A DNA stretch of 30,739 bases from Melioribacter sp. (GTDB lineage Bacteria > Bacteroidota > Ignavibacteria > Ignavibacteriales > Melioribacteraceae), in the NCBI GenBank assembly GCA_016841125.1, contig JAENZU010000001.1, positions 1 to 30,739 of the forward strand, read 5' to 3'. Made by a program: the position numbers and the translations under genes. Of the stretch, positions 1,602-29,899 are shown one piece after another (position 1 is the stretch's first letter; each line of letters starts with the position of its first letter). The notes below the pieces were generated by a model, which made no database searches, was not told the origin of the DNA, and saw only the letters and a list, made by a program, of their open reading frames with translations.

Positions 1602-2975
1602 ATGGAAAAAAAATCAGCAGCAATTCAATACAATAGGTTAATCTCCAAAGAAAGAGTTGAAAACTATTCAAGAATTTTTGACGAAAAAATAGACAAGCTT
1701 CATTTGCCCCCAGTATTTAAAAGGAAATGGTTCAGCGCAAGTTTATTATTAATTGTACTGCTGTTGATATATTTCAGTTTACGCGAAATTGAAGGTACTG
1801 TTGAGGGAATTCCAACTTTCAAAGTATCTACCGGTGACTTTATAGTTTCGGTAACCGAGAGTGGCGAGATAAGGGCTAAGAATAGCGTATCAATTTCAGC
1901 CCCTAGAATAAGAGGCAATTTAAAGATCATCTACCTGATTCCGGAAGGGACGTATGTAAAACCCGGTGATGTGGTTGCCCGTTTCGATCCGACCGAAGCT
2001 CAGACAAAATTAAAAGAAGCCGAAGCAGAGCAGGAAATTTCTTTATCGAAAAAAGAAAAACTTCTTGCTAATCATAAATCGGCAATGGCACAAATGGAAA
2101 CGCAGCTTAAGTCTGCCGAACTCAGTTTTGAGTTATCCAAATTAAATTTAGAACAAATGCGTTTTGAGGCAGAAGCTAAACAGCAGGAAGCGCTGCTGCA
2201 GCATAAAAAAAATGAATTAAGTTTTGAACAGACAAAGCAGGAATACGAATCGAAAAAAATTATTCAGCAGTCGGAATTAAACGAAATGGAAATTGAAATA
2301 AAACAGAAGCAGAATGAATTAGACCGCGCAAAACGGGATATGGAATTAATGGCGCTCTCAACTTCGGCAGAGGGACTTGTGGTCTATTCCGAAAACTGGA
2401 GTAACGACGGTAGAAAATTTGGAGTCGGCGATCAGCCGTGGCCCGGTGCCACAATAATGAATCTGCCCGACCTCTCGGCTATGGAAAGTGTTACTAATGT
2501 TAATGAGGTAGATGTAAGTAAAATCAAAAAAGGTCAAAGTGTTGTTGTAAAATTGGATGCGTTTCAGGACAGTTCATTCGGCGGGACAATCACTTCGGTT
2601 GCTTCGCTCGGAAGAAAGAAGGATAATAATTCCAATATTAAAGTGTTTGAAATTTTAGTTGAAGTTGTTGGTAAATCCGATATTCTGCGGCCCGGTATGA
2701 CTACAAGCAATAAAATAATTATCGATGAAATTCCCGGTGTAATATCTGTTCCGCTCGAAGCGGTATTTGAAAAAAATAATCAAACATTTACATATGTAAT
2801 GAATGGTTCATCATTTGATGAAAGGGAAGTTGAGTTAGGTACCAGGGGTGAGGATTTTGTTGTTATTACAAACGGATTGGAAGATAGTGATATAATAGCT
2901 CTGAGAGATCCGACAAATGAAAACGATAGAAAGAAAAATGTATCCAAAGAAAATATTAATCTTCCGAATTCCTGA
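1602..2975 (+). CDS. Efflux periplasmic adaptor / membrane fusion protein (MacA/HlyD-like)
   Basis: N-terminal TM anchor, lipoyl-like VKPGDVVARFD, long coiled-coil hairpin, LRPGMT, C-terminal VPLEAV...VELG...GL. Confidence 0.9.
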   Translation: MEKKSAAIQYNRLISKERVENYSRIFDEKIDKLHLPPVFKRKWFSASLLLIVLLLIYFSLREIEGTVEGIPTFKVSTGDFIVSVTESGEIRAKNSVSISAPRIRGNLKIIYLIPEGTYVKPGDVVARFDPTEAQTKLKEAEAEQEISLSKKEKLLANHKSAMAQMETQLKSAELSFELSKLNLEQMRFEAEAKQQEALLQHKKNELSFEQTKQEYESKKIIQQSELNEMEIEIKQKQNELDRAKRDMELMALSTSAEGLVVYSENWSNDGRKFGVGDQPWPGATIMNLPDLSAMESVTNVNEVDVSKIKKGQSVVVKLDAFQDSSFGGTITSVASLGRKKDNNSNIKVFEILVEVVGKSDILRPGMTTSNKIIIDEIPGVISVPLEAVFEKNNQTFTYVMNGSSFDEREVELGTRGEDFVVITNGLEDSDIIALRDPTNENDRKKNVSKENINLPNS

Positions 2976-2981
2976 TAAGCT

Positions 2982-4286
2982 ATGAAAAAGTTAGATAACT
3001 TCAAAATTGGAATTGCAGCTTTAACTTCGAATAAACTGAGAACATTTCTTACAATGCTTGGAATAATATTCGGCGTGGGTGCTGTAATTGCAATGCTCTC
3101 TATTGGTGAAGGCGCGCGTCAGGAAACTTTGGAACAAATTAGTCTGCTTGGAACGAATAACATAATTGTTAAATCAGTTCAGATTTCCGAAGATGCCGCA
3201 AAATCTGAAACATCCTTTTCACCCGGACTAAATATTAAAGATGCCGCATCAATAAAAGAGATAAATCCTTTTGTTGAATATGTAACACCCGAGCGGGAAT
3301 TAATGGCAAATGTTTCTTATAAGTCACATATAATTGATGCCAAAATTGTCGGCACTACGGTTGAGTATCCCAACACATTTAATTCAAATGTAACCGAAGG
3401 AAGTTTTTTTACTAAGGATCATTATCAAAAATATTCGAATGTATGTGTGCTCGGCTCCGGCATAAAAGAAAAATTGTTTAAATATGAAGACCCGACATAT
3501 CGGCAGATCAAAATTAATGATCAGTGGTTTAGGGTTATTGGTGTAGTTGCATCAAAAAATGTAAACTCTTCTGCTGTGGATAATCTTGGCGTAAGCGATT
3601 TCAACAACGAAATTTATATTCCGTTTTCTACAGCGGTAAGCAAGTTTGAGGCTGGCTCCAATGATAACAACACGCTGTCATTCGGCGGAATGGTAATAGT
3701 CTTCGGCGGTTCGCAGGCTGCAAATATTGTTGATAAATCTTCAGTCAATCAATTAACCATTAAAGTAAAGGATGATTCACAGATTAGAGAGGCCGCAAAT
3801 TTAATTGAACGGATAATGAAGCGGCGGCACTACGGTATAAAGGATTACGAGATTGTGATTCCGGAGCAACTGTTGGAACAGAAGCAGAAAACGCAAGTAA
3901 TATTCAATGTGGTAATGGGCGCAATTGCGGGTATCTCATTGCTGGTAGGCGGAATTGGGATAATGAATATAATGCTTGCAAATATTTTGGAGAGGACACG
4001 CGAAATCGGGATACGCCGCGCTGTCGGGGCTTCCCAATCAGATGTGCTGAATCAATTTATGTATGAAGCCGTAACCATCAGTATTCTGGGGGGTATAATC
4101 GGGGTTGTTGTTGGGTTTATTCTAACATCACTAATTACAGGCTATGCCGAGTGGCGTACAATCATCACTCCATTTTCGGTAATACTAGCTTTTTTTGTTT
4201 CGGTTTTGGTTGGAATAGTTTTCGGAATTTACCCGGCTAAAAAAGCAGCCTCAAAAGATCCTATTGAAGCTTTGCGTTATGAATAG
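2982..4286 (+). CDS. MacB/FtsX-like ABC transporter permease (no nucleotide-binding domain)
   Basis: NKLRTFLTMLGIIFGVGAVIAM, large periplasmic domain, GGIGIMNIMLANILERTREIGIRRAVGA, C-terminal PAKKAASKDPIEALRYE. No Walker motifs. Confidence 0.92.
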   Translation: MKKLDNFKIGIAALTSNKLRTFLTMLGIIFGVGAVIAMLSIGEGARQETLEQISLLGTNNIIVKSVQISEDAAKSETSFSPGLNIKDAASIKEINPFVEYVTPERELMANVSYKSHIIDAKIVGTTVEYPNTFNSNVTEGSFFTKDHYQKYSNVCVLGSGIKEKLFKYEDPTYRQIKINDQWFRVIGVVASKNVNSSAVDNLGVSDFNNEIYIPFSTAVSKFEAGSNDNNTLSFGGMVIVFGGSQAANIVDKSSVNQLTIKVKDDSQIREAANLIERIMKRRHYGIKDYEIVIPEQLLEQKQKTQVIFNVVMGAIAGISLLVGGIGIMNIMLANILERTREIGIRRAVGASQSDVLNQFMYEAVTISILGGIIGVVVGFILTSLITGYAEWRTIITPFSVILAFFVSVLVGIVFGIYPAKKAASKDPIEALRYE

Positions 4287-4341
4287 TTATTGTCTTGCCA
4301 ATAAAAAATCAACGTTAGGAATGATAGAAGGAAAAATATTA

Positions 4342-5772
4342 ATGCGTTATGCATTGCTTGCTTTATTGCTTTTTGTATGTACTTCAAATATTAAAGCACA
4401 AAACGTGTTGTCTTTAGAAGAATCTATTTCACTTGCGCTGCGCCAAAGTTACAGTATTCAGGAAGCCGAATATAGTTTAACAAGTTCGCGCAAAAATCTT
4501 GAAGCAGCAAAATTAGGATTGATGTCTTCAGTCCGGTTTGAATTTGATGTTCCGAGGTACTCACTCCAATTGTCGAGTCAATTCAACCCTTCAACAGGAA
4601 GTGAAGAATTCTTTAAAACCGGCAATACTACTGTTGAAGGTAGGTTGTTAATAAGTCAGCCTTTGTTATTCAGTAACGGAACTATTTCATTGATTGGTTC
4701 GCTATTCGGAAGAGACCAGTACAGCGATTTTGCCGGAACAAACCGGGACTACTTTTCGAATCTCAGCATTCGTTTAAACCAGCCCTTATTCGTTTTCAAC
4801 TCACAAAAGGCAAGTCTCGAAAAAGCTGAAATAAATTTAGATCGTGCAGAACGGAATTACTCCAAAGCAGAAAGAGGTATAATCTATAATGTAACCGCTT
4901 CATTTTTAAGATTATATCAATCGAAAAAACGGATGGAAATAACGCGGGAAAGAGTTAAGCAAAACGAGGAGTCTTTTGAAACCGCTTCAAATAAATTTAA
5001 AGCAGGATTAATTGCCGAAGTTGAAGCTATGCAGTTAGAAGTTGATTTAGCTTCCAGTCGTAATGAATTGCTTGATGCCGAAAGAAATTTTGAAAAATTG
5101 AAAAATGAATTTAAACTTTTAATAGGAATTGACCTTGGTGAAAATATTGATGTAACAGCAGAACTGAAGTTCAATCCTATTGATGTAAATTTAGAAGAAG
5201 CTATTAATACTGCTATTGCTAATCAGCCCGATTTGCAGAATGCGAAAGATGAAATACGGCTCAGTGAAATTTCGGTTGAAGAAGTTGACGCACAAAGCAC
5301 TTTCAGAGCGGACCTTTCGGCAAATTACGGCATCAATAAAAACGATGATAGATTTAAAGATGTGTTCAGCAATTTTCTTGATAACCGCAGTGTTGTTATG
5401 ACTTTATCTATTCCTGTGTGGGATTGGGGTAAAAACAGGACAGAGGTTCAGGCTGCCGAAGCCGGTTATAAAAGCTCAAAATTGAATTTCAGAAATTTAA
5501 AAGAATCGATCCGCAACGAAATTATTTCTTCGGTTAACCGTATAAACACTGCAATATCCAGGGTTGATGTTTTAAGTAAATCAGTTGAAGTCGCAGAAAA
5601 AAGTTATAATATCAGTCTCGAAAGATTCAAATCCGGTACGATCACCAGCTTTGATCTTTCCCAAATTCAGTTAAGATTGGTAGAAGCCAAACAGAGCAGC
5701 CTAAATGCTCTAATTGACTATGAACTTGCAATTGCAGAACTTGAGCGTAAAACGATGAGAGATTATCATTAA
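4342..5772 (+). CDS. TolC-family outer membrane efflux protein
   Basis: Signal peptide MRYALLALLLFVCTSNIKAQ, two OEP-like repeats, LSIPVWDWG, RFKSG. Start moved from track TTG 4264 to ATG 4342, which has AAGGA upstream. Confidence 0.9.
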   Translation: MRYALLALLLFVCTSNIKAQNVLSLEESISLALRQSYSIQEAEYSLTSSRKNLEAAKLGLMSSVRFEFDVPRYSLQLSSQFNPSTGSEEFFKTGNTTVEGRLLISQPLLFSNGTISLIGSLFGRDQYSDFAGTNRDYFSNLSIRLNQPLFVFNSQKASLEKAEINLDRAERNYSKAERGIIYNVTASFLRLYQSKKRMEITRERVKQNEESFETASNKFKAGLIAEVEAMQLEVDLASSRNELLDAERNFEKLKNEFKLLIGIDLGENIDVTAELKFNPIDVNLEEAINTAIANQPDLQNAKDEIRLSEISVEEVDAQSTFRADLSANYGINKNDDRFKDVFSNFLDNRSVVMTLSIPVWDWGKNRTEVQAAEAGYKSSKLNFRNLKESIRNEIISSVNRINTAISRVDVLSKSVEVAEKSYNISLERFKSGTITSFDLSQIQLRLVEAKQSSLNALIDYELAIAELERKTMRDYH

Positions 5773-5804
5773 ATTATTATTTAAATAATTGAGCAAACTA
5801 ATAA

Positions 5805-6509
5805 ATGAAAAATACATTTTTACCCGGCAGTAATAATCAATTAAAATTTCTCTTGGATAATATTGATGTTACAGGGAATAAAATATTAGTGGTTGGTTCT
5901 GCATCCGAAAATATTGCCGTTGAGCTTGCTGAAAAATCCGGGGTGCCCGTTACCATTATTGTTGAAGACCTTAATTCTTTCATGAATTCAAATATGATAC
6001 TCGAAGAGGCAGCTAATGTTGAAGTGAAGATGATGGATTTTGACGCCACGGATTTTGGAGCAAATACTTTCGATCTGATTTATGCGCAGGCTTCTGTTTC
6101 TTTAGATAAGCGAAATAAAATAATTAAAGAATTTAAGAGAATACTTAATCCGGGCGGCGTTTTCTGCACCGGCGAGATTGTTACTGTTGGGAAAAACATT
6201 CCGGCGTTTGTAAACGATATTATGATTAGCTCGGCAATGGAACCATTAAATAGTGATGAATTTCAAAATTACTATGAACAGCGGGGTTTTGAAATTTTAA
6301 ACTTGGAAGATTTGACTTCTACTTTGGGTGTATTTTATTCCGGCAGCCTGGTTAAGCTTAGTGATGCAATCAAAGATTTTTCTGAAAGAGAAAGTTCATA
6401 CTATAAAAAACTGGTCAATAAAATCAAGCATGAATCGGAAGCATATTTGAAACACGGTGCCGATAAGTATATTGGCTTTAAAGTAATTTTAATGAGAAAG
6501 GATAAATGA
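5805..6509 (+). CDS. Class I SAM-dependent methyltransferase-fold protein with degenerate motif I
   Basis: FGANTFDLIYAQ and EFKRILNPGGVF match Methyltransf_11-type motifs. Motif I reads ILVVGSASE instead of VLD(V/I)GCGxG. Stop overlaps the rlmD start (ATGA). Confidence 0.7.
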   Translation: MKNTFLPGSNNQLKFLLDNIDVTGNKILVVGSASENIAVELAEKSGVPVTIIVEDLNSFMNSNMILEEAANVEVKMMDFDATDFGANTFDLIYAQASVSLDKRNKIIKEFKRILNPGGVFCTGEIVTVGKNIPAFVNDIMISSAMEPLNSDEFQNYYEQRGFEILNLEDLTSTLGVFYSGSLVKLSDAIKDFSERESSYYKKLVNKIKHESEAYLKHGADKYIGFKVILMRKDK

Positions 6510-7936
6510 TGAAAAGAGGAGATGTAACAGTACTTGATATTGAAGGTTATGCTTATGAAGGCAAGGGAATTGCCAAGATTGACAGCGGTAATGGTGACGG
6601 TAAAAAGTTTGTGATATTTGTTAACGGAGCCTACCCGGGCGACAAAGTAGAAGTTTTGATTAGGAAAGCAAAAAGAAATTTTGCCGAAGCAATTGTTCAG
6701 AGGATAATTAAGCCTTCCGAACTAAGGATAGAACCCAAGTGCAAATATTTCGGTGTCTGCGGAGGATGTAAACAGCAGAACATGAATTACCAAGCCCAAT
6801 TAAAATTTAAGCAGATGCAGGTAAGTGAAATTTTTGATAAGATGGGTGGGTTTACAGATTTTGAATTTGAAGATATAGTTCCTTCTGAAAATATTTTTCA
6901 TTACCGGAATAAAATGGAATTTTCCTTCTCCGATAAAAGATGGATCACTCCTGCAGAGATTAAAAACTCAGATGAGATAACCGACAGAAATTTTGCACTC
7001 GGTCTACACGTGCCGCGTGTTTATGATAAAGTATTAGATATTGACGAATGTTTTCTGCATTCCGAAACCGGCAACCGGATAATTAATTTTACAAGGGAAT
7101 TTTTTAAACAGCGGAATACGTCAGTATATACCACGCATACACATGAGGGTTTTCTGAGAAATCTTGTGATTAAAAATTCTTATAAAACAAACGATCTGAT
7201 GGTTAACCTCGTAACTTCAGAAGAAGATGAAAAATTAGTTGGGCAGTACAGTGAAGAAATTGTGAAAGAAATTCCCGAAATATCTACTGTTGTAAATAAT
7301 GTGAATTTAAAAAAAGCACAAGTTGCAGTTGGGGATTATGAAAAAGTATTTTTCGGGAAAGGCTTTATTCATGATATGATTGGAGACTTCAAATTTAGAA
7401 TCAGTCCGAACTCTTTCTTTCAAACCAACACGCTGCAGGCGCAAAAATTATACGATACAATTTTGGATTTTGCACAGTTCACGGGAGATGAAGTAGTTTA
7501 TGATCTTTACAGCGGTGCAGGAACAATTTCAATTTATTTATCACCGAAGGTTAAAAAGGTTTATGCATTCGAAAGTGTTGATGATGCGGTAAAAGATGCT
7601 AAAGCTAATTCTGTGTTTAATGAAATTGATAATATTTCGTTTCATACAGCAGATTTGAATAGATCATTTCTCCCAATCCAGCAGCACAAAAAACTTGATC
7701 TGCCCGATGTCATTGTTGCCGATCCGCCGAGAAATGGAATGAATCCTAAAACTATTAAAGACATCATTACTCTCTCACCTAAAAAAATTGTTTATGTGAG
7801 CTGCAACCCCACAACTCAAGTTAGGGATATTAAATTGCTGACCGAAGCCGGCTATAAATTAATTAAGATAAGACCTGTTGATATGTTTCCGCACACATAT
7901 CATATTGAAAATGTAGCTTTATTGACTAAAGATTAG
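6506..7936 (+). CDS. rlmD: 23S rRNA (uracil-C5)-methyltransferase RlmD
   Basis: TRAM domain, Fe-S motif CKYFGVCGGCKQQ, YRNKMEF, SFFQTN, DLYSGAG, DPPRNG, catalytic YVSCNP, DMFPHTYHIE. Confidence 0.93.
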   Translation: MMKRGDVTVLDIEGYAYEGKGIAKIDSGNGDGKKFVIFVNGAYPGDKVEVLIRKAKRNFAEAIVQRIIKPSELRIEPKCKYFGVCGGCKQQNMNYQAQLKFKQMQVSEIFDKMGGFTDFEFEDIVPSENIFHYRNKMEFSFSDKRWITPAEIKNSDEITDRNFALGLHVPRVYDKVLDIDECFLHSETGNRIINFTREFFKQRNTSVYTTHTHEGFLRNLVIKNSYKTNDLMVNLVTSEEDEKLVGQYSEEIVKEIPEISTVVNNVNLKKAQVAVGDYEKVFFGKGFIHDMIGDFKFRISPNSFFQTNTLQAQKLYDTILDFAQFTGDEVVYDLYSGAGTISIYLSPKVKKVYAFESVDDAVKDAKANSVFNEIDNISFHTADLNRSFLPIQQHKKLDLPDVIVADPPRNGMNPKTIKDIITLSPKKIVYVSCNPTTQVRDIKLLTEAGYKLIKIRPVDMFPHTYHIENVALLTKD

Positions 7937-9669: not shown

Positions 9670-10962
9670 TTAACAACTCGGCAGTGGTCCGTTTCTGAGA
9701 CGGTAATAAGTTGAAGTATATAGTTCGATATTTTTTAACGGTGCCGCTATTTGAACTATCATATATCTAGCGTGGAAAACAACTTTGCCGGCTAACTTAA
9801 GCAATTGATATCTCAACGTTCTTACAGACTTTGTGTGATATTGTTCTTCTAATCCAGCAAGCTTGAGCATTTGAAGTAAATTGTATGCCAATAAACCTAT
9901 TGTAAAGTATAAACAGTTGGCATTAAACTGCCCGCAAGGTAATCTGTCTAAATTTATTTGATGCTTTAGTTCGCCTATTATTCTCTCCATCTTTCCACGT
10001 CTCTGATGAAGTTTTATTACAGCTTTTGCTTCATATTCATCTTCCGGTAGATTTGTAGCTACTATCCAATATCGATATTCTAAAAATAAATCCCCTTGTT
10101 TTTGCAACGGTGTTCTCTTTACTGCTAACCTCACTGTGCGCTTCTTTGCTCCAAAGCTATAATAGGTAGATGCTGTTTCGTAATTCTCTTTTATTCCATC
10201 CTCATCTATTTCTCGTTCCCATTGATCCTCCGGTATTGTTTTTACTGCTGCTAGTATCCCTTCGGTTTGATCTGTCGTTACCGTAAAACCTATTCCTTCT
10301 TGATTGCAATAATCAACCAACCCTTTCTGCCATCCGGCTGAATCACTGCGGACTATCTTTATTGGTTGAGGATAATTTTTTCGGCAGCTTTCTATAAATT
10401 CTACCAGTCCGCTCTGCGGTGATGCATTGCCTTCTCTAAAATCACTTCCAACAACAATTGAGTTCTCTGATATTATTCCTAATAAAGGGTGGTATCCATA
10501 ATTGCCTTTGTAGGTCTTCTTCGAATCTCCTTTCTCCGACTCTATTATCGTTGCATCTATATCTAGTATCTTGCCTTCTTTCGGCAATCCATATAATAGT
10601 TGTTTGTTTACTTTTAATATCTTCGACTCCGATAACTTTCCCCCATACCTTCTTAACCAGTCTCCTATTGCATCGCCTGTTGGCAGTTTCATATCCTTGA
10701 GAAATTCTTGGAATGCTTCGTCTTCTAATAAATGGCGTACATCTTCTAAGTGTAAGGCTCCGTCTATAAACATATATACTAATGTCATTACATAATCACT
10801 GGCTTTTATGCCCCGGTTGCTGCCCGGTTTGCCGAATAACTCGTCTAGCTTTTCTCTTAAACCCATTCTTTCTATTATTTCTTCTACTAAGGGTACTCCT
10901 ATTCGATTACTTATTCTTTCTTTACTTCGGGTTACTTTTATTGGTTTGCTTCTTTTTAACAT
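9670..10962 (-). CDS. IS1380-family DDE transposase
   Basis: 430 aa uninterrupted. LDIDAT, YHPLLG, FREGNASP, VRSDSAG and RGKMERIIGELK give the D-D-E triad; LRYQLLKLAGKVVFHARY C-terminus. Confidence 0.92.
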   Translation of the reverse strand: MLKRSKPIKVTRSKERISNRIGVPLVEEIIERMGLREKLDELFGKPGSNRGIKASDYVMTLVYMFIDGALHLEDVRHLLEDEAFQEFLKDMKLPTGDAIGDWLRRYGGKLSESKILKVNKQLLYGLPKEGKILDIDATIIESEKGDSKKTYKGNYGYHPLLGIISENSIVVGSDFREGNASPQSGLVEFIESCRKNYPQPIKIVRSDSAGWQKGLVDYCNQEGIGFTVTTDQTEGILAAVKTIPEDQWEREIDEDGIKENYETASTYYSFGAKKRTVRLAVKRTPLQKQGDLFLEYRYWIVATNLPEDEYEAKAVIKLHQRRGKMERIIGELKHQINLDRLPCGQFNANCLYFTIGLLAYNLLQMLKLAGLEEQYHTKSVRTLRYQLLKLAGKVVFHARYMIVQIAAPLKNIELYTSTYYRLRNGPLPSC

Positions 10963-21830: not shown

Positions 21831-22256
21831 TTATTGACCTGCAAATGTTCCTGCTTTTTCAAGAGCATATTGGTTTACTATCGCTTCAGCTAATCTTCTC
21901 ACTTTCGGGTTTGTATCTGTTTCCGATAACTCTTTTACTTTATAGATCCCATTTTCTTTCCCTATTTTGTAAAGTGTAACAGATATCAAATATTTCATTT
22001 CGGCATTGTCTTCATTTTCTAACTCTTTCATTAAGGTTTCAACAAGAGCTTCCAATTGATATTTGCCGGCAAAGTAGATAGCACTTTTTCTTAATCCGGG
22101 ATTTTCTGATTCTATTGCCATCCTTAAATTCGCTACTCCGTTTTTACCGAAGCTCAATTCTGCATTTCTGTTCTGCGCGAATATTGCTGTGCTCATTAAT
22201 ACTAAAACTGTTAATGTTGTAAAAACTTTTTTCATGTTGGTAACTGCTGCTTTCAT
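21831..22256 (-). CDS. Small exported HEAT-repeat-like protein (paralog A)
   Basis: GGAGG SD, signal peptide ending AIFAQ, helical repeats ENPGLRKSAIYFAGKY, LYKIG, DTNPKVRRLA. Confidence 0.8.
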   Translation of the reverse strand: MKAAVTNMKKVFTTLTVLVLMSTAIFAQNRNAELSFGKNGVANLRMAIESENPGLRKSAIYFAGKYQLEALVETLMKELENEDNAEMKYLISVTLYKIGKENGIYKVKELSETDTNPKVRRLAEAIVNQYALEKAGTFAGQ

Positions 22257-22324
22257 TGTATCCTCCGTGTTAAATAATTTTTTGCTTTTTCTGTATCTTA
22301 AGACGGAAAGGTTCGCAGCAGAGT

Positions 22325-22360
22325 TGTCAAAGTAAGGTAATCAATTGTCACGGATTGTCA
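22325..22360 (-). promoter_or_regulatory. Four-half-site direct-repeat operator, copy A
   Basis: + strand TGTCA 22325, GGTAA 22336, TGTCA 22346, TGTCA 22356 (spacing 11/10/10). Confidence 0.7.
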
Positions 22361-22568
22361 TTTAAACTTTTAGGGAACAAACTAATGTTTAGTAATTTAT
22401 ACATTCTATCAAATTAACTATACAATTTGTATTTTTTGTTGAGTCTAAAACACCTAAATCAAAGTGAATCCGCAGTATTATCTGTGGCATGTTATTGGTA
22501 TTATTTCAGCAATTAAATAAAAATGATTAAATTTGAATATTCAATAAACTTCAATTTAGGAGAACAAA

Positions 22569-23183
22569 ATGAGGTATTTACAGTTATTAAAAGTATTTTC
22601 AGCATTGATAATAGCAGCTCTATTGGCAGCAGGGTGCAGTTCGGGAAGACAGGTAAGCAGAATAGATACAAAAGAAATAGTTGATCTAAGCGGCAAGTGG
22701 AATGATACTGATGCACGCCTGGTTGCCGAAGAAATGGTGAACGATGTTCTCACACGCCCCTGGTTAACCGAATATTTAACAACCGAAGGAAAGAAGCCGG
22801 TTGTAATTGTAGGTAAGATAAGAAATAAAAGTAGCGAACATATTGCGGTTGACGTATTTGCAAATGATATTGAGAGAGAATTACTCAATTCCGGTAAAGT
22901 TACATTTGTAGCATCTCAAGATGCGCGGGAAGAAGTTAGAGAAGAAAGAAAAGATCAGCAGGATTTTGCATCTGCCGAAACTTTCAAAAAATTCTACCGG
23001 GAAATTGGAGCAGATTTTTTGATGACCGGTGTAATTAACAGTGTGCAGGATACTTACGAAGGTGAACAGGTTACCTATTATCAAGTCGATCTAGAACTTA
23101 TTAATATTGAAGATAATACTAAAGCGTGGATCGGAACTAAGAAGATCAAAAAATATATTGGGCAGGATGGTTATAAATTATAA
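22569..23183 (+). CDS. LpoB-like / CsgG-fold lipoprotein
   Basis: GGAG SD, lipobox LAAG-C, DLSGKWNDTD, IRNKSSEHI, GADFLMTGVI, YYQVDLELI. Confidence 0.8.
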   Translation: MRYLQLLKVFSALIIAALLAAGCSSGRQVSRIDTKEIVDLSGKWNDTDARLVAEEMVNDVLTRPWLTEYLTTEGKKPVVIVGKIRNKSSEHIAVDVFANDIERELLNSGKVTFVASQDAREEVREERKDQQDFASAETFKKFYREIGADFLMTGVINSVQDTYEGEQVTYYQVDLELINIEDNTKAWIGTKKIKKYIGQDGYKL

Positions 23184-23231
23184 TTAATTTTTGATTTAGT
23201 GCATTTTTATTTGATAGGATAAATACGATCT

Positions 23232-24605
23232 ATGCGCCGGCTTAAATTTTCAATAACGGTAACTTTATTAATATTATTCGGTTTTGGGTGTTCGTCAATC
23301 AGGACAAACACCCAATTTTACGAACCGATTTTAACCGATCTTAAAAAGGGGGATTTTCAGAAAGCTGCCGCCGAAATTAATGAAGCTGAAGTTGATGGAG
23401 AATATGCTGATAAAGATAGAGTTCTGCTGCATCTCGACAAAGGCATCATCCACTACTACAACGGGAATTACAGGCTGGCAATTGATGAATTGACCGCCGC
23501 TGAAAATACGATTGATGAACTCTACACTAAAAGCATTTCCAAAGCCGCCGCTTCAATTTTGCTTAACGATAATGCATTAGCATACGATGGCAATGTTTAT
23601 GAAGATCTGTACATAAATGTTTTCAAAGCCATTTGTTTTCTAAGATTAAATAATTTTGATGACGCCTACGTTGAGATTAAAAAGATTACAGACAAGCTTA
23701 AAGAGTTTGATGTTTATTATGAAGAATATGTGCAGAGCCTGAATGTTGCTGAAGACGCAAAGTTTAAAATTGATCCTAAAAAATTAGATTACTACAATAA
23801 TGTTCTCGCTAATTATATTTCACATTTAATATTTAGAGCAGAAGGAGATTACGACGACAGCCGAATTTCTTTGGAACAATTAAACGATGCTTGGGATACT
23901 TACTCTGATGTTTACGATTATTCCAAACCTTCTGCAGTAACAGAGACCGGATCTGAGCGCGGAACATTCTTGAATGTATTGGCATTTGCGGGTCCGGCGC
24001 CAATTAAAAAATCAATTGGTGCAAGAATTACAACTTTCAATGATTTTATTGTTATCTCCGATCCAACTGAGTATCACATTCAGCCTATTCCGATTCCGGG
24101 TATAAAATCGGGATGGAATTTTAAATTCGCTTTCCCCGAAATAGTTGAAGAGGGAACTGAAGTCTACGATATTGAAGTTTGGGTTGACAGCACACACATC
24201 GGTAATTTAGAACTGCTGGAAAATATGTGCAACGTTGCCGAGAAAACTTTTCAATCTGAAAAAAATGTAATTTTCTTTAAAACGATAATGCGCGCATTGG
24301 CAAAGGGCATTGCATCATCGGCTCTGGGAAGGACAGTTAAAAAAGAAGCAGGCGGAGGATTTCTCGGTGATCTCGCGGCACTAGCAACAAATATCGCCGT
24401 TGATTTAACAGAAAATGCAGACCTTCGTTCGTGGCGGACAATGCCGGGTTACAGTTTTACCGCTGAATTCGAAATTGAGCCAGGAGTTCATGATATCGAA
24501 ATTAGATTTGTTGATATGAACAGAAAGTTATTGGCTAAACGTAAATACGATAATTATAAAGTGAATAAAAAGCTTAATCTGCTGGATGCCGTTTATTTGA
24601 ATTGA
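23232..24605 (+). CDS. COG3014-family lipoprotein (TPR-like N-terminus)
   Basis: Lipoprotein-like signal (FGFG-C), LLHLDKG, YDGNVYE, ADLRSWRTMP family-type motif. Confidence 0.75.
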   Translation: MRRLKFSITVTLLILFGFGCSSIRTNTQFYEPILTDLKKGDFQKAAAEINEAEVDGEYADKDRVLLHLDKGIIHYYNGNYRLAIDELTAAENTIDELYTKSISKAAASILLNDNALAYDGNVYEDLYINVFKAICFLRLNNFDDAYVEIKKITDKLKEFDVYYEEYVQSLNVAEDAKFKIDPKKLDYYNNVLANYISHLIFRAEGDYDDSRISLEQLNDAWDTYSDVYDYSKPSAVTETGSERGTFLNVLAFAGPAPIKKSIGARITTFNDFIVISDPTEYHIQPIPIPGIKSGWNFKFAFPEIVEEGTEVYDIEVWVDSTHIGNLELLENMCNVAEKTFQSEKNVIFFKTIMRALAKGIASSALGRTVKKEAGGGFLGDLAALATNIAVDLTENADLRSWRTMPGYSFTAEFEIEPGVHDIEIRFVDMNRKLLAKRKYDNYKVNKKLNLLDAVYLN

Positions 24606-25408
24606 CTTCTCAACGCAATTATTTTCTTCATAAAATTTTGAATTTTTGTTTTGTCCAACTCATTGCTCCACATACCTTTTTTCTTAAAATAGGAACCTAT
24701 AATAAATGCATCGGCGCTGAGAATATATTTTTCGATGTTGTCTATTGTAATTCCAGAACCGATTAAAACAGGTACCTTCACTTTTTCTTTTACCCGATTA
24801 ACCTCTTCGGGATCAGCGGCGCTGCCGGTTTTGGACCCGGTAATAATTAAACCATCGCTTAAAAAAAACTCTGCAGCCTCGGCGGTTTCAACAAGTGTAA
24901 CATCAGCGGTTAGCTGATGAGAGCTATGTTTCTTTTTAATATCCGTAAAAATCATAATGTTTTCGGCATCAATCTGTTTTCTGTAGCGGAGCAGTTCGCC
25001 TGCATCGGAGTTCATTAAACCTTCATCTGCAATGTGAGAAAAAACAAAACCTTCCGCGCGAATAAAATTGAGACCCGCAGCATTAGAGGCAGCAAGAGCC
25101 TCCTTGTTAGCTCCGGCTAAGATCTGCATTCCGCAAGGCAGTCCGGTTTTCATTCTCAACTCATAACCGATAATGCCCATTGCTGCTGTAATTTCTGGAC
25201 CTGCAGTTCTATTCAAATAGGGGACATCGTGCATATTCTCTAAAATAATTGCATCTACTCCTCCACTCCTGTATATCAAAGCTTCCTCAATCGCTTTATC
25301 AATCACATCTCCAAACTTTCCTCTATATTTTGGTGTGCCGGGAAGGGCATGAACGTGGATCATTCCGATGACTGCTTTTGGGGGAAATATTTTTTTGAAT
25401 TTTTTCAT
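24593..25408 (-). CDS. BtpA/SgcQ-family protein
   Basis: IGMIHVHALPGTP, ENMHDVPY, FIRAEGFVF, DIKKKHS, GLIITGSKTG, VLIGSGIT, IIGSYFK. Confidence 0.92.
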   Translation of the reverse strand: MKKFKKIFPPKAVIGMIHVHALPGTPKYRGKFGDVIDKAIEEALIYRSGGVDAIILENMHDVPYLNRTAGPEITAAMGIIGYELRMKTGLPCGMQILAGANKEALAASNAAGLNFIRAEGFVFSHIADEGLMNSDAGELLRYRKQIDAENIMIFTDIKKKHSSHQLTADVTLVETAEAAEFFLSDGLIITGSKTGSAADPEEVNRVKEKVKVPVLIGSGITIDNIEKYILSADAFIIGSYFKKKGMWSNELDKTKIQNFMKKIIALRSQFK

Positions 25409-25461
25409 ATTCTATTACTCAATTAAATATATTGATGAAGTGAAAAATAACAATTTCGGTT

Positions 25462-26271
25462 TTGCAATTGAAATCAATTTATAAATTTCTTGTTGTAATA
25501 AGTATATTTATCTGCAATACTCCGGCGCAGGATACTCTGATCTTCAAACAAAATTATATCCCATATCCTGATACGACTTTAATTTTTTCGCCCACCTCAA
25601 CCGGGGAAGAAATGCCGTTGATGATACTTCTTCATGGATGGAGCGGAACCTATGCGCAATGGAATTCGATAATAGATCTTAATAGTGCTGCAGAGGAGTA
25701 TGGATTTTTAATTGTTTGTCCGGATGGATTTTACGACTCCTATTATGTTGATAGTCCCGTAAACCCAAATGTGCAATTCGAAAAGTTTTTTTGGAGTGAT
25801 CTGATTCCTAAATTACTTGAAGATTTTAATGTTGATAGAGAAAATATTTTTATCAGCGGCTTGAGTATGGGCGGGCATGGTGCAATTTCTTTATTTTTGA
25901 AACAACCCGATTTCTTTAAAGCTGCAGGCAGTACAAGCGGTGTATTAAATTTATCGGACTTTCCGAACCGCCCTTCAATAAAGGTTTCGCATGGTGATTT
26001 TAATAAGTATTATGTTTCGTGGCGGAAGAATTCATCCTATTACCTTTTGGATAATTTTACAGAGAAAAGTAAGTGGATGATTATCGATTGCGGAACCGAT
26101 GATTTTTTCTATAAGTGCAATATCGAATTTTATGAGAAATGTAAAAAATTAAATTTAAATGTGAAGTTTATTTCTCAGGCGGGAAATCATAGTAGAGGGT
26201 ACTGGAGTAATTCTATCTGGAATCATTTTAATTTCTTTAAAACATTAATCGAAGAAAATATCCCAAATTGA
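25462..26271 (+). CDS. Exported alpha/beta-hydrolase esterase (tributyrin-esterase/FrmB-like)
   Basis: Signal peptide, LLHGWSG, nucleophile elbow GLSMGG, DCGTDD, GNHSRGYW; TTG start. Confidence 0.85.
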   Translation: MQLKSIYKFLVVISIFICNTPAQDTLIFKQNYIPYPDTTLIFSPTSTGEEMPLMILLHGWSGTYAQWNSIIDLNSAAEEYGFLIVCPDGFYDSYYVDSPVNPNVQFEKFFWSDLIPKLLEDFNVDRENIFISGLSMGGHGAISLFLKQPDFFKAAGSTSGVLNLSDFPNRPSIKVSHGDFNKYYVSWRKNSSYYLLDNFTEKSKWMIIDCGTDDFFYKCNIEFYEKCKKLNLNVKFISQAGNHSRGYWSNSIWNHFNFFKTLIEENIPN

Positions 26272-27315
26272 TTTTTTTGCCGGGTTCTTTTTTTGTTCCT
26301 TCCAAAACTCAATGTATTTGTCTTTTGTTGTAATCCCGATAGGACCTTCGTAAATACCGCCGTCGAGATAGTCGTCATAAACCCGCACAGCTAATACGTT
26401 ATTTCCGTTTTTATTGATAAGATTTGAAGGAATGTAATAACCGCGAAACTGGAAATATTCATCCGTAACATTGTGGATAGTTGGTGTAATTAGAAAATCT
26501 CCGGTGGATCCGATTAAGTGTCCATTAAAATAAACTTGATCAATGTCGTCTATTTTCCCCAGCACAAGAACTAAATTTTTTGATGCAAGGTTTTGGGGAA
26601 GATTGAAACTTTTCCGGTACCACGCGAAGCCGTCATAATTTTCAAATCCCTGATATTCCCATTTCATAGGAACACCAATATCTTGCCAGCCGCTGTCGGT
26701 CAAATCAGGCTTTGCCCAATCTAAATTATCTCCGGTTTTGAATCTCCATATACCCTCAAGGTGAAGAGCAATATCAATTGTGGTTTTCGGATCGGGAGTG
26801 TAGAGACCAATTCCTCCGGATATAATACCGCCGCTTAATTCTGCATCGTAAATTCTAACCGCAATTACATTCCAGCCATTTGAATTGAAATAATCTTTCG
26901 GTACAAAATAACGGCGGTAGGCATTGTAGGCTGTTTTGTAATCCGGCGGGAAAGTTCCGGAGCCGCCAATCATTTTCCCGTTGAAATAAACCTGATCAAC
27001 ATCATCAATGTAACCAAGATCCAAATAAATGTTTTCGTATTTGTTCTGATCGCGGAATTCAAATTTTTTGCGGTACCATGCGAAACCGTTATAACCGTGA
27101 AAACCTTCATCCTCCCATGCGGAGGGGACTCTAACTTTTTCCCAGCTGGAATCGTTGTAATAAGTCTCAGACCATTGTTTATCGTCGCCGATGGTGAATT
27201 TCCACGCACCCTTTAAACTCTCTATTTTTCTCCAATCTTGAGCATTATTTACAGAAATAAAGAGGAGTGGAACTACCGAAAAGTATAACAATAATTTATT
27301 TGAGAAGATTTTCAT
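26245..27315 (-). CDS. Exported protein with two tandem beta-galactosidase-type jelly-roll sugar-binding domains
   Basis: Signal peptide ending NNAQ. Internal repeat L.G.W.F..GD...W...VP..WE..G...Y.GFAWYRK.F...LG.IDD.DQVYFNG..IG..G...N..AVR.YD....GGI..G occurs twice. No catalytic barrel. Confidence 0.85.
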   Translation of the reverse strand: MKIFSNKLLLYFSVVPLLFISVNNAQDWRKIESLKGAWKFTIGDDKQWSETYYNDSSWEKVRVPSAWEDEGFHGYNGFAWYRKKFEFRDQNKYENIYLDLGYIDDVDQVYFNGKMIGGSGTFPPDYKTAYNAYRRYFVPKDYFNSNGWNVIAVRIYDAELSGGIISGGIGLYTPDPKTTIDIALHLEGIWRFKTGDNLDWAKPDLTDSGWQDIGVPMKWEYQGFENYDGFAWYRKSFNLPQNLASKNLVLVLGKIDDIDQVYFNGHLIGSTGDFLITPTIHNVTDEYFQFRGYYIPSNLINKNGNNVLAVRVYDDYLDGGIYEGPIGITTKDKYIEFWKEQKKNPAKKSIWDIFFD

Positions 27316-27369
27316 GTTTTTAAGATTACTTTTAGAAGATTAAATAATAATAAATCGTCAATATTTTTT

Positions 27370-27405
27370 AGTCAGTTTGGTGTAAATAATTGTCATTAAT
27401 TGTCA
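27370..27405 (-). promoter_or_regulatory. Four-half-site direct-repeat operator, copy C
   Basis: AGTCA 27370, TGTAA 27381, TGTCA 27391, TGTCA 27401 (11/10/10); includes a perfect tandem AATTGTCATT x2. Confidence 0.7.
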
Positions 27406-27426
27406 TTAAATAGGACATGACGGTTA

Positions 27427-27840
27427 TTATTTCAAGTCAGCTACTTGTGAATTGCTCGCTTCAAATTCTTCAATAATTGCCGTAAACATATTCTTTACTT
27501 TTGGATTAGTTTCACTGAAAGTTAGATTTTCGACAAAGTCCATGCTTTTTGCGTCACCAATCTTAAACAATGAGAGTGCTATCAGTATTTTAATATTAGG
27601 ATCATCTTCAATCTTTAATTGATTTTCTAAAACTTCCTTTATTTCCTCAACCTGATACTTGCCGGCAAAATAGATTGAACTTTTCTTAAGTCCGGGATTA
27701 TCAGAAGTTATCCCCATTTTTAGATTTCCGATTGCTCTCTCATTAAAATTAAGTTTTTCAACTGAATTCGTTTGAGCGCTTATTGAGATCAGCAAAAGAG
27801 CAAATACTGCAACTGTAAAAATTTTATTTATATGTTTCAT
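27427..27840 (-). CDS. Small exported HEAT-repeat-like protein (paralog B)
   Basis: Start moved to ATG 27840 (GGAG SD), 137 aa, signal peptide ending ISAQ. SDNPGLKKSSIYFAGKYQ, LFKIG and ETNPKV are shared with paralog A. Confidence 0.8.
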   Translation of the reverse strand: MKHINKIFTVAVFALLLISISAQTNSVEKLNFNERAIGNLKMGITSDNPGLKKSSIYFAGKYQVEEIKEVLENQLKIEDDPNIKILIALSLFKIGDAKSMDFVENLTFSETNPKVKNMFTAIIEEFEASNSQVADLK

Positions 27841-27903
27841 TTTTAACTCCGTTTGATTTATTAAAATTTCTGAAGTAAATCTACACCTATGAAATGTTAT
27901 CGT

Positions 27904-27939
27904 TGTCAAGCGGAAGTTAAAAGATGTCACAAGTTGTCA
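27904..27939 (-). promoter_or_regulatory. Four-half-site direct-repeat operator, copy B
   Basis: TGTCA 27904, AGTTA 27915, TGTCA 27925, TGTCA 27935 (11/10/10). Confidence 0.7.
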
Positions 27940-27940
27940 T

Positions 27941-27970
27941 AAAAAAAGGGATACCGGCAAGTATCCCTTT
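27941..27970 (-). terminator. Intrinsic terminator on the minus strand
   Basis: Minus strand reads AAAGGGATAC-TTGCCG-GTATCCCTTT then TTTT (7-T run in total). Confidence 0.75.
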
Positions 27971-28369: not shown

Positions 28370-29899
28370 TTATTTCAAAAACATCCCCGCACCGGGACCT
28401 ATCGGTAAACCGAGAAGTATCCAAACAATTAGCATGCAGCTCCAGAACAATAAAAACGCGAAGGAATAGGGAAGCATTGTAGCAATGATAGTTCCTATTC
28501 CGGCATTTTTATCATACCTCTGGAAAAATGCAACAATGAGTGCAAAATATGACATCATCGGAGAGATGATATTTGTAACGCTATCTCCGACTCGGTAAGC
28601 AACTTGCGTGAACTCGGGACTGTATCCTAAAAGCATAAACATCGGGATGAAAACCGGAGCCATAATTGCCCATTTTGCCGAGGCGCTTCCCATCACCAAA
28701 TTCACGACCGCACTCACAATTATAAAACTCAGCATTAACGGAATATCTCCCAAACCTGATGATTCCAAAAGCTGCGCTCCTTCAATTGCGAAGATCAAAC
28801 CTAAATTTGTCCAATTAAAATATGCAACAAACTGGGCGGCGAAAAATGTGAGAACAATGTAGATGCCTAAAGTCTCCATCGATTTTGCCATCCCCTTAAT
28901 TACATCTTTATCAGTTTTGATGGTTCTTGCACCAATTCCATATGCAATTCCTGTAACTGCACCGCCCAAAAAGATAAATGCCACAATTCCGGACATAAAT
29001 GGTGAACGAAGCAGACTGCCCGTTTCGGGGTCTCTCAAAAATCCATCTGCGGGAACCGTTCCCCAAAGTATAAGTGCTGTAAAAACCAGTGATGCAACTA
29101 AAGTAAATTTCAAACCTCTTTTCTCTTCCTTTGTTAATTTGTCGAGGCTTTCGTTTCCTGTTTCGCCTTCATAAACTCCTAATCTGGGGATTACCACTTT
29201 TTCCGTTATCCACGTACCGATCCCTGCTAAAAAAAATGTGGATACAAACATAAAATAATAGTTTGCTGCAGGGTTCACTTGGTAAGTAGGATCGATGATA
29301 CGTGCCGCTTCCTCAGAAAGTCCTGCTAATAGCGGGTCAATTGTTCCCAATAATAAATTTGCGCTGTAACCTGCGGAGACCGCCGCAAAAGCTGCAGCCA
29401 TGCCCGCAATTGGGTGTCTGCCCACTGACATAAAAATGATTGCTGCCAAAGGTATTAATAAAACATATCCGACTTCACTTGCAGTATTTGATAAAATTCC
29501 GGCAAACACAATTACAAATGTGAGAAGTTTTTTTGGTGCAGAAAGAACAAGCAGCCTTAATGCTGCTCCAATCAATCCGGTTCCCTCGGCAATCCCAATT
29601 CCAAGTAATGAAACCAGAACTGTTCCGAGCGGTGCAAAGGATGTAAAGTTATCCACCATTTCAGTTAGTATTTTATGAAGCCCTTCAACTGACAGCAGGT
29701 TTACCGGTTTTATTAGTTCACCTGTGCCAGGATGTGTAACCGCGATATCAAAACTGCTTGTAATTCCGCTAATCACTACTACGGCTAGAGCCATAAGTGC
29801 AAATAGTGAAACAGGATCCGGAAGGGCATTTCCCACTTTTTCAATTATTGAAAGAAATTTTGAAATGAAATTTTTATTCTCGGCAGAAGAATTCGTCAT
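28370..29899 (-). CDS. AbgT-family transporter (p-aminobenzoyl-glutamate transporter-like)
   Basis: [68 protein letters not shown]....MLPY. Confidence 0.93.

Follow-up and report, generated by a model that had tools for sequence, protein, structure and literature searches.

The question raised by the 30,739-nt stretch of Melioribacter sp. DNA analysed here (contig JAENZU010000001.1, positions 1 to 30,739; hereafter the window) is what reads a four-part repeat array that stands, with the same spacing, before three genes for exported proteins. Two of these genes encode small HEAT-like paralogs (HEAT1 and HEAT2) and the third, the jelly-roll gene, encodes a tandem jelly-roll protein. The arrays, their conservation in relatives, their fixed position with respect to the core promoter, and their linkage to and co-occurrence with a regulator gene are established here. 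These results make it likely that a single OmpR-family two-component system has arrays A, B and C as its operator; its kinase and regulator genes lie on another contig of the same genome (C14). The arrays and the genes behind them are as follows.

22325-22360, minus strand: array A, an exact match to the order-wide pattern given below; half-sites in gene direction TGACA 22360-22356, TGACA 22350-22346, TTACC 22340-22336 and TGACA 22329-22325
27904-27939, minus strand: array B, half-sites TGACA, TGACA, TTAAC and TGACA; spacing 10/10/11; one mismatch to the pattern
27370-27405, minus strand: array C, half-sites TGACA, TGACA, TTTAC and TGACT
21831-22256, minus strand: HEAT1, small exported HEAT-like protein of 141 aa with a signal peptide; HEAT_2 at 25 bits, under the 27.7 cut-off
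27427-27840, minus strand: HEAT2, a 137-aa HEAT1 paralog carrying a signal peptide
26245-27315, minus strand: jelly-roll gene, exported protein of 356 aa with two galactose-binding-like jelly-roll domains

Read in gene direction, the three arrays share the form TGACA-N5-TGACA-N5-TTAC-N7-TGAC(A/T), which gives an operator length of 36 bp. An earlier note on this DNA had placed twelve half-sites on the + strand with 11/10/10 spacing, 55-70 nt upstream of the genes. All twelve lie where it put them, and the distance from the proximal half-site to the start codon is 69 nt for A, 64 nt for B and 55 nt for C. The start of HEAT2 is ATG 27840, which lies behind a GGAG, and not GTG 27930. HEAT2 and the jelly-roll gene are 111 nt apart, and array C lies in this gap. 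The HEAT1 and HEAT2 proteins are 42% identical, a divergence too great for neutral upstream DNA to have retained the array. The same geometry recurs before unrelated genes across the class, and duplication alone, as had been argued, is insufficient to account for copy C. A domain search of the 356-aa jelly-roll protein found no catalytic domain.

The arrays are also rare. For the pair TGTCA-N5-TGTCA, 100 shuffles of the window give an expectation of 0.05; it is seen there three times, and five times on both strands of the 4.07-Mb genome, these three included, where about 2 are expected from the TGTCA count; the remaining pairs (contigs C82 and C197) are without the third and fourth sites. When a 43-nt matrix is built from any two arrays, the one left out ranks first genome-wide with a score of 20-24 bits, while the best other genomic site scores 16-19. 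Such a matrix scan had been proposed in the earlier note; together with looser-pattern scans of the assembled genome, it returned no additional convincing array beyond A, B and C. Full array copies in the draft genome are these three only, and as the draft consists of 740 contigs and is 82.7% complete, more arrays are possible on unassembled DNA.

Related genomes, which the earlier note had also proposed to scan, carry the same element. The upstream regions of nearly all best HEAT1-homolog matches from 60 relatives, inspected without any pattern search, show the four-site array. Searching 61 relatives for TKACA-N5-TKACA-N5-TTAC-N7-TGACA with at most one mismatch gave 57 matches in 33 genomes, and a single match to the reversed pattern that served as a control. 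The array is kept before HEAT and jelly-roll orthologs although the proteins share only 35-55% identity. Of 301 genomes sampled across the class, 17 contain the exact pattern, all within the window's order, with no match to the control. The 10/10/11 direct-repeat spacing is kept in 53 related arrays and in other orders. The half-site that stands second on the + strand had been described as degenerate; its position is as described, and the label is not apt, since its TTAC variant is conserved in 53 of 53 related arrays (a count made on arrays collected with a pattern that allowed only A or C at two of the four positions). Positions that the pattern left free are kept as well, namely an R ahead of site 1, an A or T behind every ACA, the T-richness of the spacer, and an ACT behind site 4; the flanks of the array are not conserved. 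TGACT as the proximal site, as in array C, is frequent before jelly-roll orthologs. One relative (G038, loci L100/L008) has an array in which sites two and three stand one nucleotide further apart (10/11/11), which suggests that the spacing tolerates a small change.

The neighbourhood of the arrays in relatives points to the protein that would read them. The usual layout, taken from 40 mapped loci, runs from a kinase gene (~515 aa) through a regulator gene (~227 aa) to the array and a HEAT gene (~145 aa), often followed by a second array, and then to a jelly-roll gene (~350 aa). In about 25 of the 40 loci the array follows closely on the end of the regulator ortholog (62-71% identity), whose open reading frame closes on G(I/V)GYK(L/M), the C-terminus of an OmpR-family regulator. 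The family proposed in the earlier note, OmpR/PhoB, is borne out in that, in most relatives, the gene immediately preceding the array encodes a protein with Response_reg and Trans_reg_C domains. Other families of the class have regulator orthologs at 58-65% identity, and in 11 of 11 loci from other orders (41-62% GC; one regulator at 54% identity) the array comes right after the regulator. It precedes a jelly-roll gene or a small open reading frame there, and its proximal site reads nGACA. Judged from these loci, the jelly-roll gene appears to be the invariable target, and the HEAT gene is often one as well; the small open reading frames between the regulator and jelly-roll genes in these orders gave no Pfam match, and HEAT-likeness was not assignable to them. 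Further genes that lie behind a single array in relatives encode an exported protein of 745 aa with a CBM9-like domain (L075 in G008, 3138-5375), a TonB-C protein and a TPR protein (L091 in G057, 9776-10231, and L062 in G058, 5577-6158). Judged by their domains, the common theme of these extra targets is the cell envelope and carbohydrate binding.

The distribution of the regulator across genomes matches that of the array. With orthology set at 63% identity or more, 37 of the 61 relatives have the regulator; the strict-pattern array occurs in 33 of these 37 and in none of the 24 regulator-negative genomes. Looser patterns recover variant arrays in G019, G038 (spacer longer by 1 nt) and G034, all regulator-positive. 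In G035 the regulator is present and the array was not found, and the jelly-roll gene is also missing. A jelly-roll ortholog is present in 36 of the 37 regulator-positive relatives and 0 of the 24 others. The Fisher test for co-occurrence (p ~1e-13) is descriptive only, as the relatives are not independent.

In the present genome, the regulator ortholog lies on contig C14 (4551-5240, minus strand), with the kinase gene directly upstream (5255-6808, minus strand) and a CPA2-type antiporter gene downstream. No regulator or kinase of this kind was found in the window, in agreement with the earlier note, and from its location on another contig the C14 regulator would act in trans. It is 66-69% identical to the array-linked regulators, while the next paralogs reach ~44%, and it carries Response_reg (5e-31) and Trans_reg_C (7e-26) domains. 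It falls under all NCBIfam equivalog cut-offs, scoring 234 against 340 for YycF, 200.5 against 331 for OmpR and 198.7 against 330 for RpaB. The test for a PhoB equivalog failed likewise (210.8 bits vs 270 for the Bacteroidetes PhoB model and 207.7 vs 296.2 for TIGR02154). Its nearest solved relatives are RegX3, MtrA, RpaA and PhoP of M. tuberculosis. We looked for an array before the C14 kinase-regulator operon and there is none; an array-like site upstream of the corresponding operon in G034 (L117, 6445-6480, minus strand) is unique among the loci examined and could mean autoregulation. Another relative, G025, has two copies of the module, one unlinked (regulator at C2:116063, array at C19:443870) and one linked (second regulator and jelly-roll gene at C1:147616-149874), and offers a natural case in which to study cross-talk or divergence of specificity.

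The kinase has membrane helices at residues 8-28 and 261-281, and its HisKA domain begins at residue 292. The predicted fold of the periplasmic part (predicted local distance difference test score, pLDDT, 88.5) consists of a long helix followed by two alpha/beta modules, and the best solved fold matches are all double-PDC/dCache ligand-binding domains, from KinD, CqsR, the Pct chemoreceptors (PctA-D) and Mlp24 (E down to 2e-6, template modelling (TM) score ~0.47-0.5). Given these matches, the kinase probably senses a small extracellular molecule.

Downstream of the arrays, the putative core promoters in the window are of two kinds, one with a Bacteroidetes-type -7 box and one resembling promoters of extracytoplasmic function (ECF) sigma factors.

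22298-22305, minus strand: CGTCTTAA, ECF-like -10 element of promoter A; starts 17 nt past the AAC overlapping the proximal half-site (TGACAAC)
27876-27883, minus strand: TAGATTTA, Bacteroidetes-type -7 box; starts 20 nt after the proximal half-site of array B
27342-27352, minus strand: TATTATTATTT, -7/-10-like box at C; TATTAT at +17 and again at +20 nt from the proximal half-site

For the ECF assignment, the AAC that is a hallmark of ECF -35 elements and the consensus of B. subtilis sigma-X/M/W serve as the basis of comparison. The ECF-like class comprises array A and 24 other HEAT arrays (25 of 39 HEAT arrays), with the sequence TGACAAC-N17-CGTCT(T/A)A. AAC and GTC-type element occur together in 25 arrays, the AAC alone in 5 and the GTC alone in none, and the predicted GTC-type element starts at 19 nt in 21 of the 25. 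As this coupling is a signature of ECF sigma promoters, the AAC-N17-CGTC core at promoter A, the single feature out of the ordinary here, is predicted to be of that type. The -7-box class takes in arrays B and C together with the jelly-roll genes and, in one family, the HEAT genes. For 21 of its 21 arrays, the predicted box TAnnTT[TG] starts exactly 20 nt from the proximal half-site, a fixed distance that places the half-site at the position of the -33 element. The promoters of B and C and those from other orders have a -7 box and no recognisable -33 TTG element of their own.

The earlier note had taken the proximal TTGACA for a -35 consensus and had pointed to CTGACT followed 17 nt later by TATTAT at C. 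The latter is present, within TATTATTATTT. The former finds no support as a sigma-70 element: in this genome neither TTGACA nor TATAAT is positionally enriched ahead of genes, shuffles contain sigma-70-like sites at least as often as the region does, and what is conserved at this site is a regulator half-site (TGACA; nGACA in other orders). TA..TTT[GA], on the other hand, is enriched about 2x at -60 to -20 of start codons. The Bacteroidetes-type -7 box is TAnnTTTG, and the enrichment fits a Bacteroidetes-like RpoD motif, with the box TA[ATC][ATC][AT]T, that has been described in Chlorobaculum (bioRxiv 10.1101/172254). The lineage of the window appears to use Bacteroidetes-type -7 boxes, and apparently not the sigma-70-type TTGACA/TATAAT.

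In the mechanism that we propose, the kinase, with two membrane helices around its periplasmic double-PDC (dCache-like) domain, would pick up a small extracellular molecule. The phosphorylated regulator would then occupy T(G/T)ACA-N5-T(G/T)ACA-N5-TTAC-N7-TGAC(A/T) as two head-to-tail dimers on the four phased half-sites, and at the gene-proximal half-site (-33/-35) it would recruit RNA polymerase in the manner of PhoB, B. subtilis PhoP and OmpR, so that HEAT1, HEAT2 and the jelly-roll gene would be switched on together. Recruitment by the bound regulator is suggested by the lack of an own -33/-35 element in these promoters. It is because of the missing -33 element that we infer activation rather than repression, with the least certainty at the ECF-type promoter A. 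That the C14 regulator binds the arrays, like the identity of its signal, is inferred from the comparisons above. The idea of the earlier note that one regulator co-controls a set of exported proteins is supported by comparative genomics for the three promoters; in the assembled genome the regulon would comprise these three and not a wide set.

Several points weigh against this picture. Linkage and co-occurrence with the regulator are no proof that the regulator is the binder, given also that the relatives are not independent samples, and in the present genome, as in G016, G020, G025 and G036, regulator and arrays are unlinked. Promoter A and most HEAT promoters in relatives are of the ECF type, and the regulator could modulate or block transcription there. 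The sequencing runs that contain this stretch are DNA runs only, and none of the sampled sequence words occurs in the one RNA run from a sample in which the stretch is present.

If the same regulator bound the arrays to repress, it would exclude polymerase from the -33/-35 region and, at promoter A, from the ECF AAC. Such an arrangement would suit the overlap between the proximal site and the ECF-like AAC at promoter A and in 25 related HEAT promoters, and it would suit four array-less HEAT paralogs of this genome with the same ECF-like core, which may fire alone. We nevertheless regard repression as unlikely, because a -7 box without a -33 TTG of its own, as at B, C and the promoters from other orders, is the usual mark of activator dependence, and because four phased direct repeats ending at -35 match the activated promoters of PhoB, B. 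subtilis PhoP and OmpR. It is more doubtful still that some other DNA-binding protein recognises the arrays and that the OmpR-family regulator is linked to them through shared function only. The array was found in none of the 24 genomes without the ortholog, it follows immediately on the regulator stop codon across several orders, and OmpR/PhoB-type regulators are typified by phased direct repeats of 10-11 bp period; among the loci mapped, no other regulator gene is conserved in the neighbourhood of the array. What speaks for another binder is that arrays and regulator are unlinked in several genomes, the present one included.

The arrays might also be promoter sequence and nothing else, with an ECF sigma factor reading TGACAAC as its -35 element and the upstream copies being decoys or leftovers of duplication. 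TGACAAC-N17-CGTC at promoter A is indeed a typical ECF layout, and the ECF-like motif is common in this genome. We give this account almost no credence, however, since arrays B and C and all those of other orders keep four sites without AAC/CGTC, ECF-driven HEAT paralogs are without upstream repeats, the three upstream sites are conserved as much as the proximal one, and duplication does not explain an identical geometry before unrelated genes across the class. A two-component operator thus remains the reading that we prefer for arrays A, B and C. Within it, we entertain, as a less likely possibility, the idea that one OmpR-family regulator drives two holoenzymes from the same operator geometry. 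The primary sigma factor would act through the -7 box at HEAT2 and the jelly-roll gene, and an ECF sigma factor through AAC-N17-CGTC at HEAT1 and most HEAT orthologs. If this were so, the ECF-type promoters would need both the two-component signal and an envelope-stress signal, and an OmpR-family activator working with an ECF holoenzyme would be unusual; to our knowledge, OmpR-family activators are not usually described with ECF sigma factors.

The arrays resemble the operators of several known systems and are identical to none of those compared. The E. coli PhoB pho box is CTGTCAT-N4-CTGTCAT, two sites with an 11-bp period. The arrays share with it a regulator of the OmpR/PhoB family, direct repeats in place of the -35 element, and the letters TGTCA; they differ in having four sites instead of two and a period of mostly 10 bp, and their orientation would be reversed, TGTCA here being on the strand opposite the genes. 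On period and orientation, and with a regulator that is no PhoB equivalog, the arrays are not a pho box. In the Pho boxes of B. subtilis PhoP-PhoR, two dimers bind four TT(A/T/C)ACA-like half-sites, which are direct repeats on the coding strand with an 11-bp period. In both systems four direct half-sites reach the -35 region of promoters without a -35 element, and the cores, TTACA and TGACA, are nearly identical. The period is 11 bp there and 10/10/11 here, however, the targets here are HEAT-like and jelly-roll genes and not phosphate genes, and the C14 regulator is neither a PhoP nor a PhoB equivalog. OmpR binds sites F1-F3 at ompF and C1-C3 at ompC, which are contiguous 10-bp half-sites with an ACA core occupied by several head-to-tail dimers. 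The likeness lies in these multi-dimer head-to-tail 10-bp half-sites ending beside the -35 region; ompF and ompC have six half-sites in contrast to the four here, and EnvZ is without a dCache sensor. The cyanobacterial HLR1 motif of RpaB consists of direct (G/T)TTACA(T/A)(T/A) repeats set 2 nt apart, with a 10-bp period (PMC6525291). It resembles the middle units of the arrays (tTTACAAt), of which the second reads TTACA in 35 of 53 related arrays and the third fits in part; in the window these units read TGACA and TTAC. HLR1 has two units, whereas the arrays have four with a fixed 11-nt last step, and lineage, sensor and targets differ, as does the regulator, which is no RpaB equivalog. In the literature we found no paper on this two-component/array system.

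For an uncultured, little-studied lineage, the arrays very probably outline a new regulon of textbook-type operation, in which a dCache-like sensor kinase, a regulator and a 36-bp operator would control a few exported, non-catalytic targets. These are the HEAT-like and the tandem, sugar-binding-like jelly-roll proteins, joined in relatives by CBM9, TonB-C and TPR proteins. The operator is sharp enough for regulon members to be predicted in any genome of the class, and it makes the function of the HEAT and jelly-roll pair testable. Where it overlaps an ECF-type promoter, it would provide a natural case of a two-component activator and an alternative sigma factor sharing one promoter.

Around promoter B, the AbgT-family transporter gene (28370-29899) lies upstream, and one further element separates the two.

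27945-27970, minus strand: intrinsic terminator close upstream of array B, with an 11-pair stem and a T run behind it

This terminator is predicted to insulate promoter B from the transporter gene. There is no terminator between HEAT2 and array C, and array C may for that reason serve as an internal promoter. A pair of genes for an LpoB-like lipoprotein and a TPR protein (window 22569-24605) adjoins the HEAT/array locus; the pair stands beside such a locus in at least three genera, including L071 (G025) and L101 (G019), and it is divergent from the array promoter in this genome (G000) and in G025.

The ECF-like motif extends well beyond the arrays. This genome has ~40 AAC-N16/17-CGTCT sites, many of them 20-60 nt before start codons, and all four array-less HEAT paralogs carry a (G/T)nAAC-N16/17-CGTCT ECF-like promoter at the following places.

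C639:3719: promoter of an array-less HEAT paralog
C226:4691: promoter of an array-less HEAT paralog
C618, upstream of 1812-2273 (minus strand): promoter of an array-less HEAT paralog
C133:1700-1740: promoter of an array-less HEAT paralog

An ECF regulon of some size, with the small HEAT family among its members, is suggested by these sites. HEAT genes seem to be ECF targets in general, with the array overlaid on the promoter in the subset linked to the two-component system. On contig C133 (L125), the HEAT paralog (1779-2162) lies directly downstream of a gene for an ECF-type sigma factor of 421 aa with a DUF6596/TPR C-terminal extension (334-1599).

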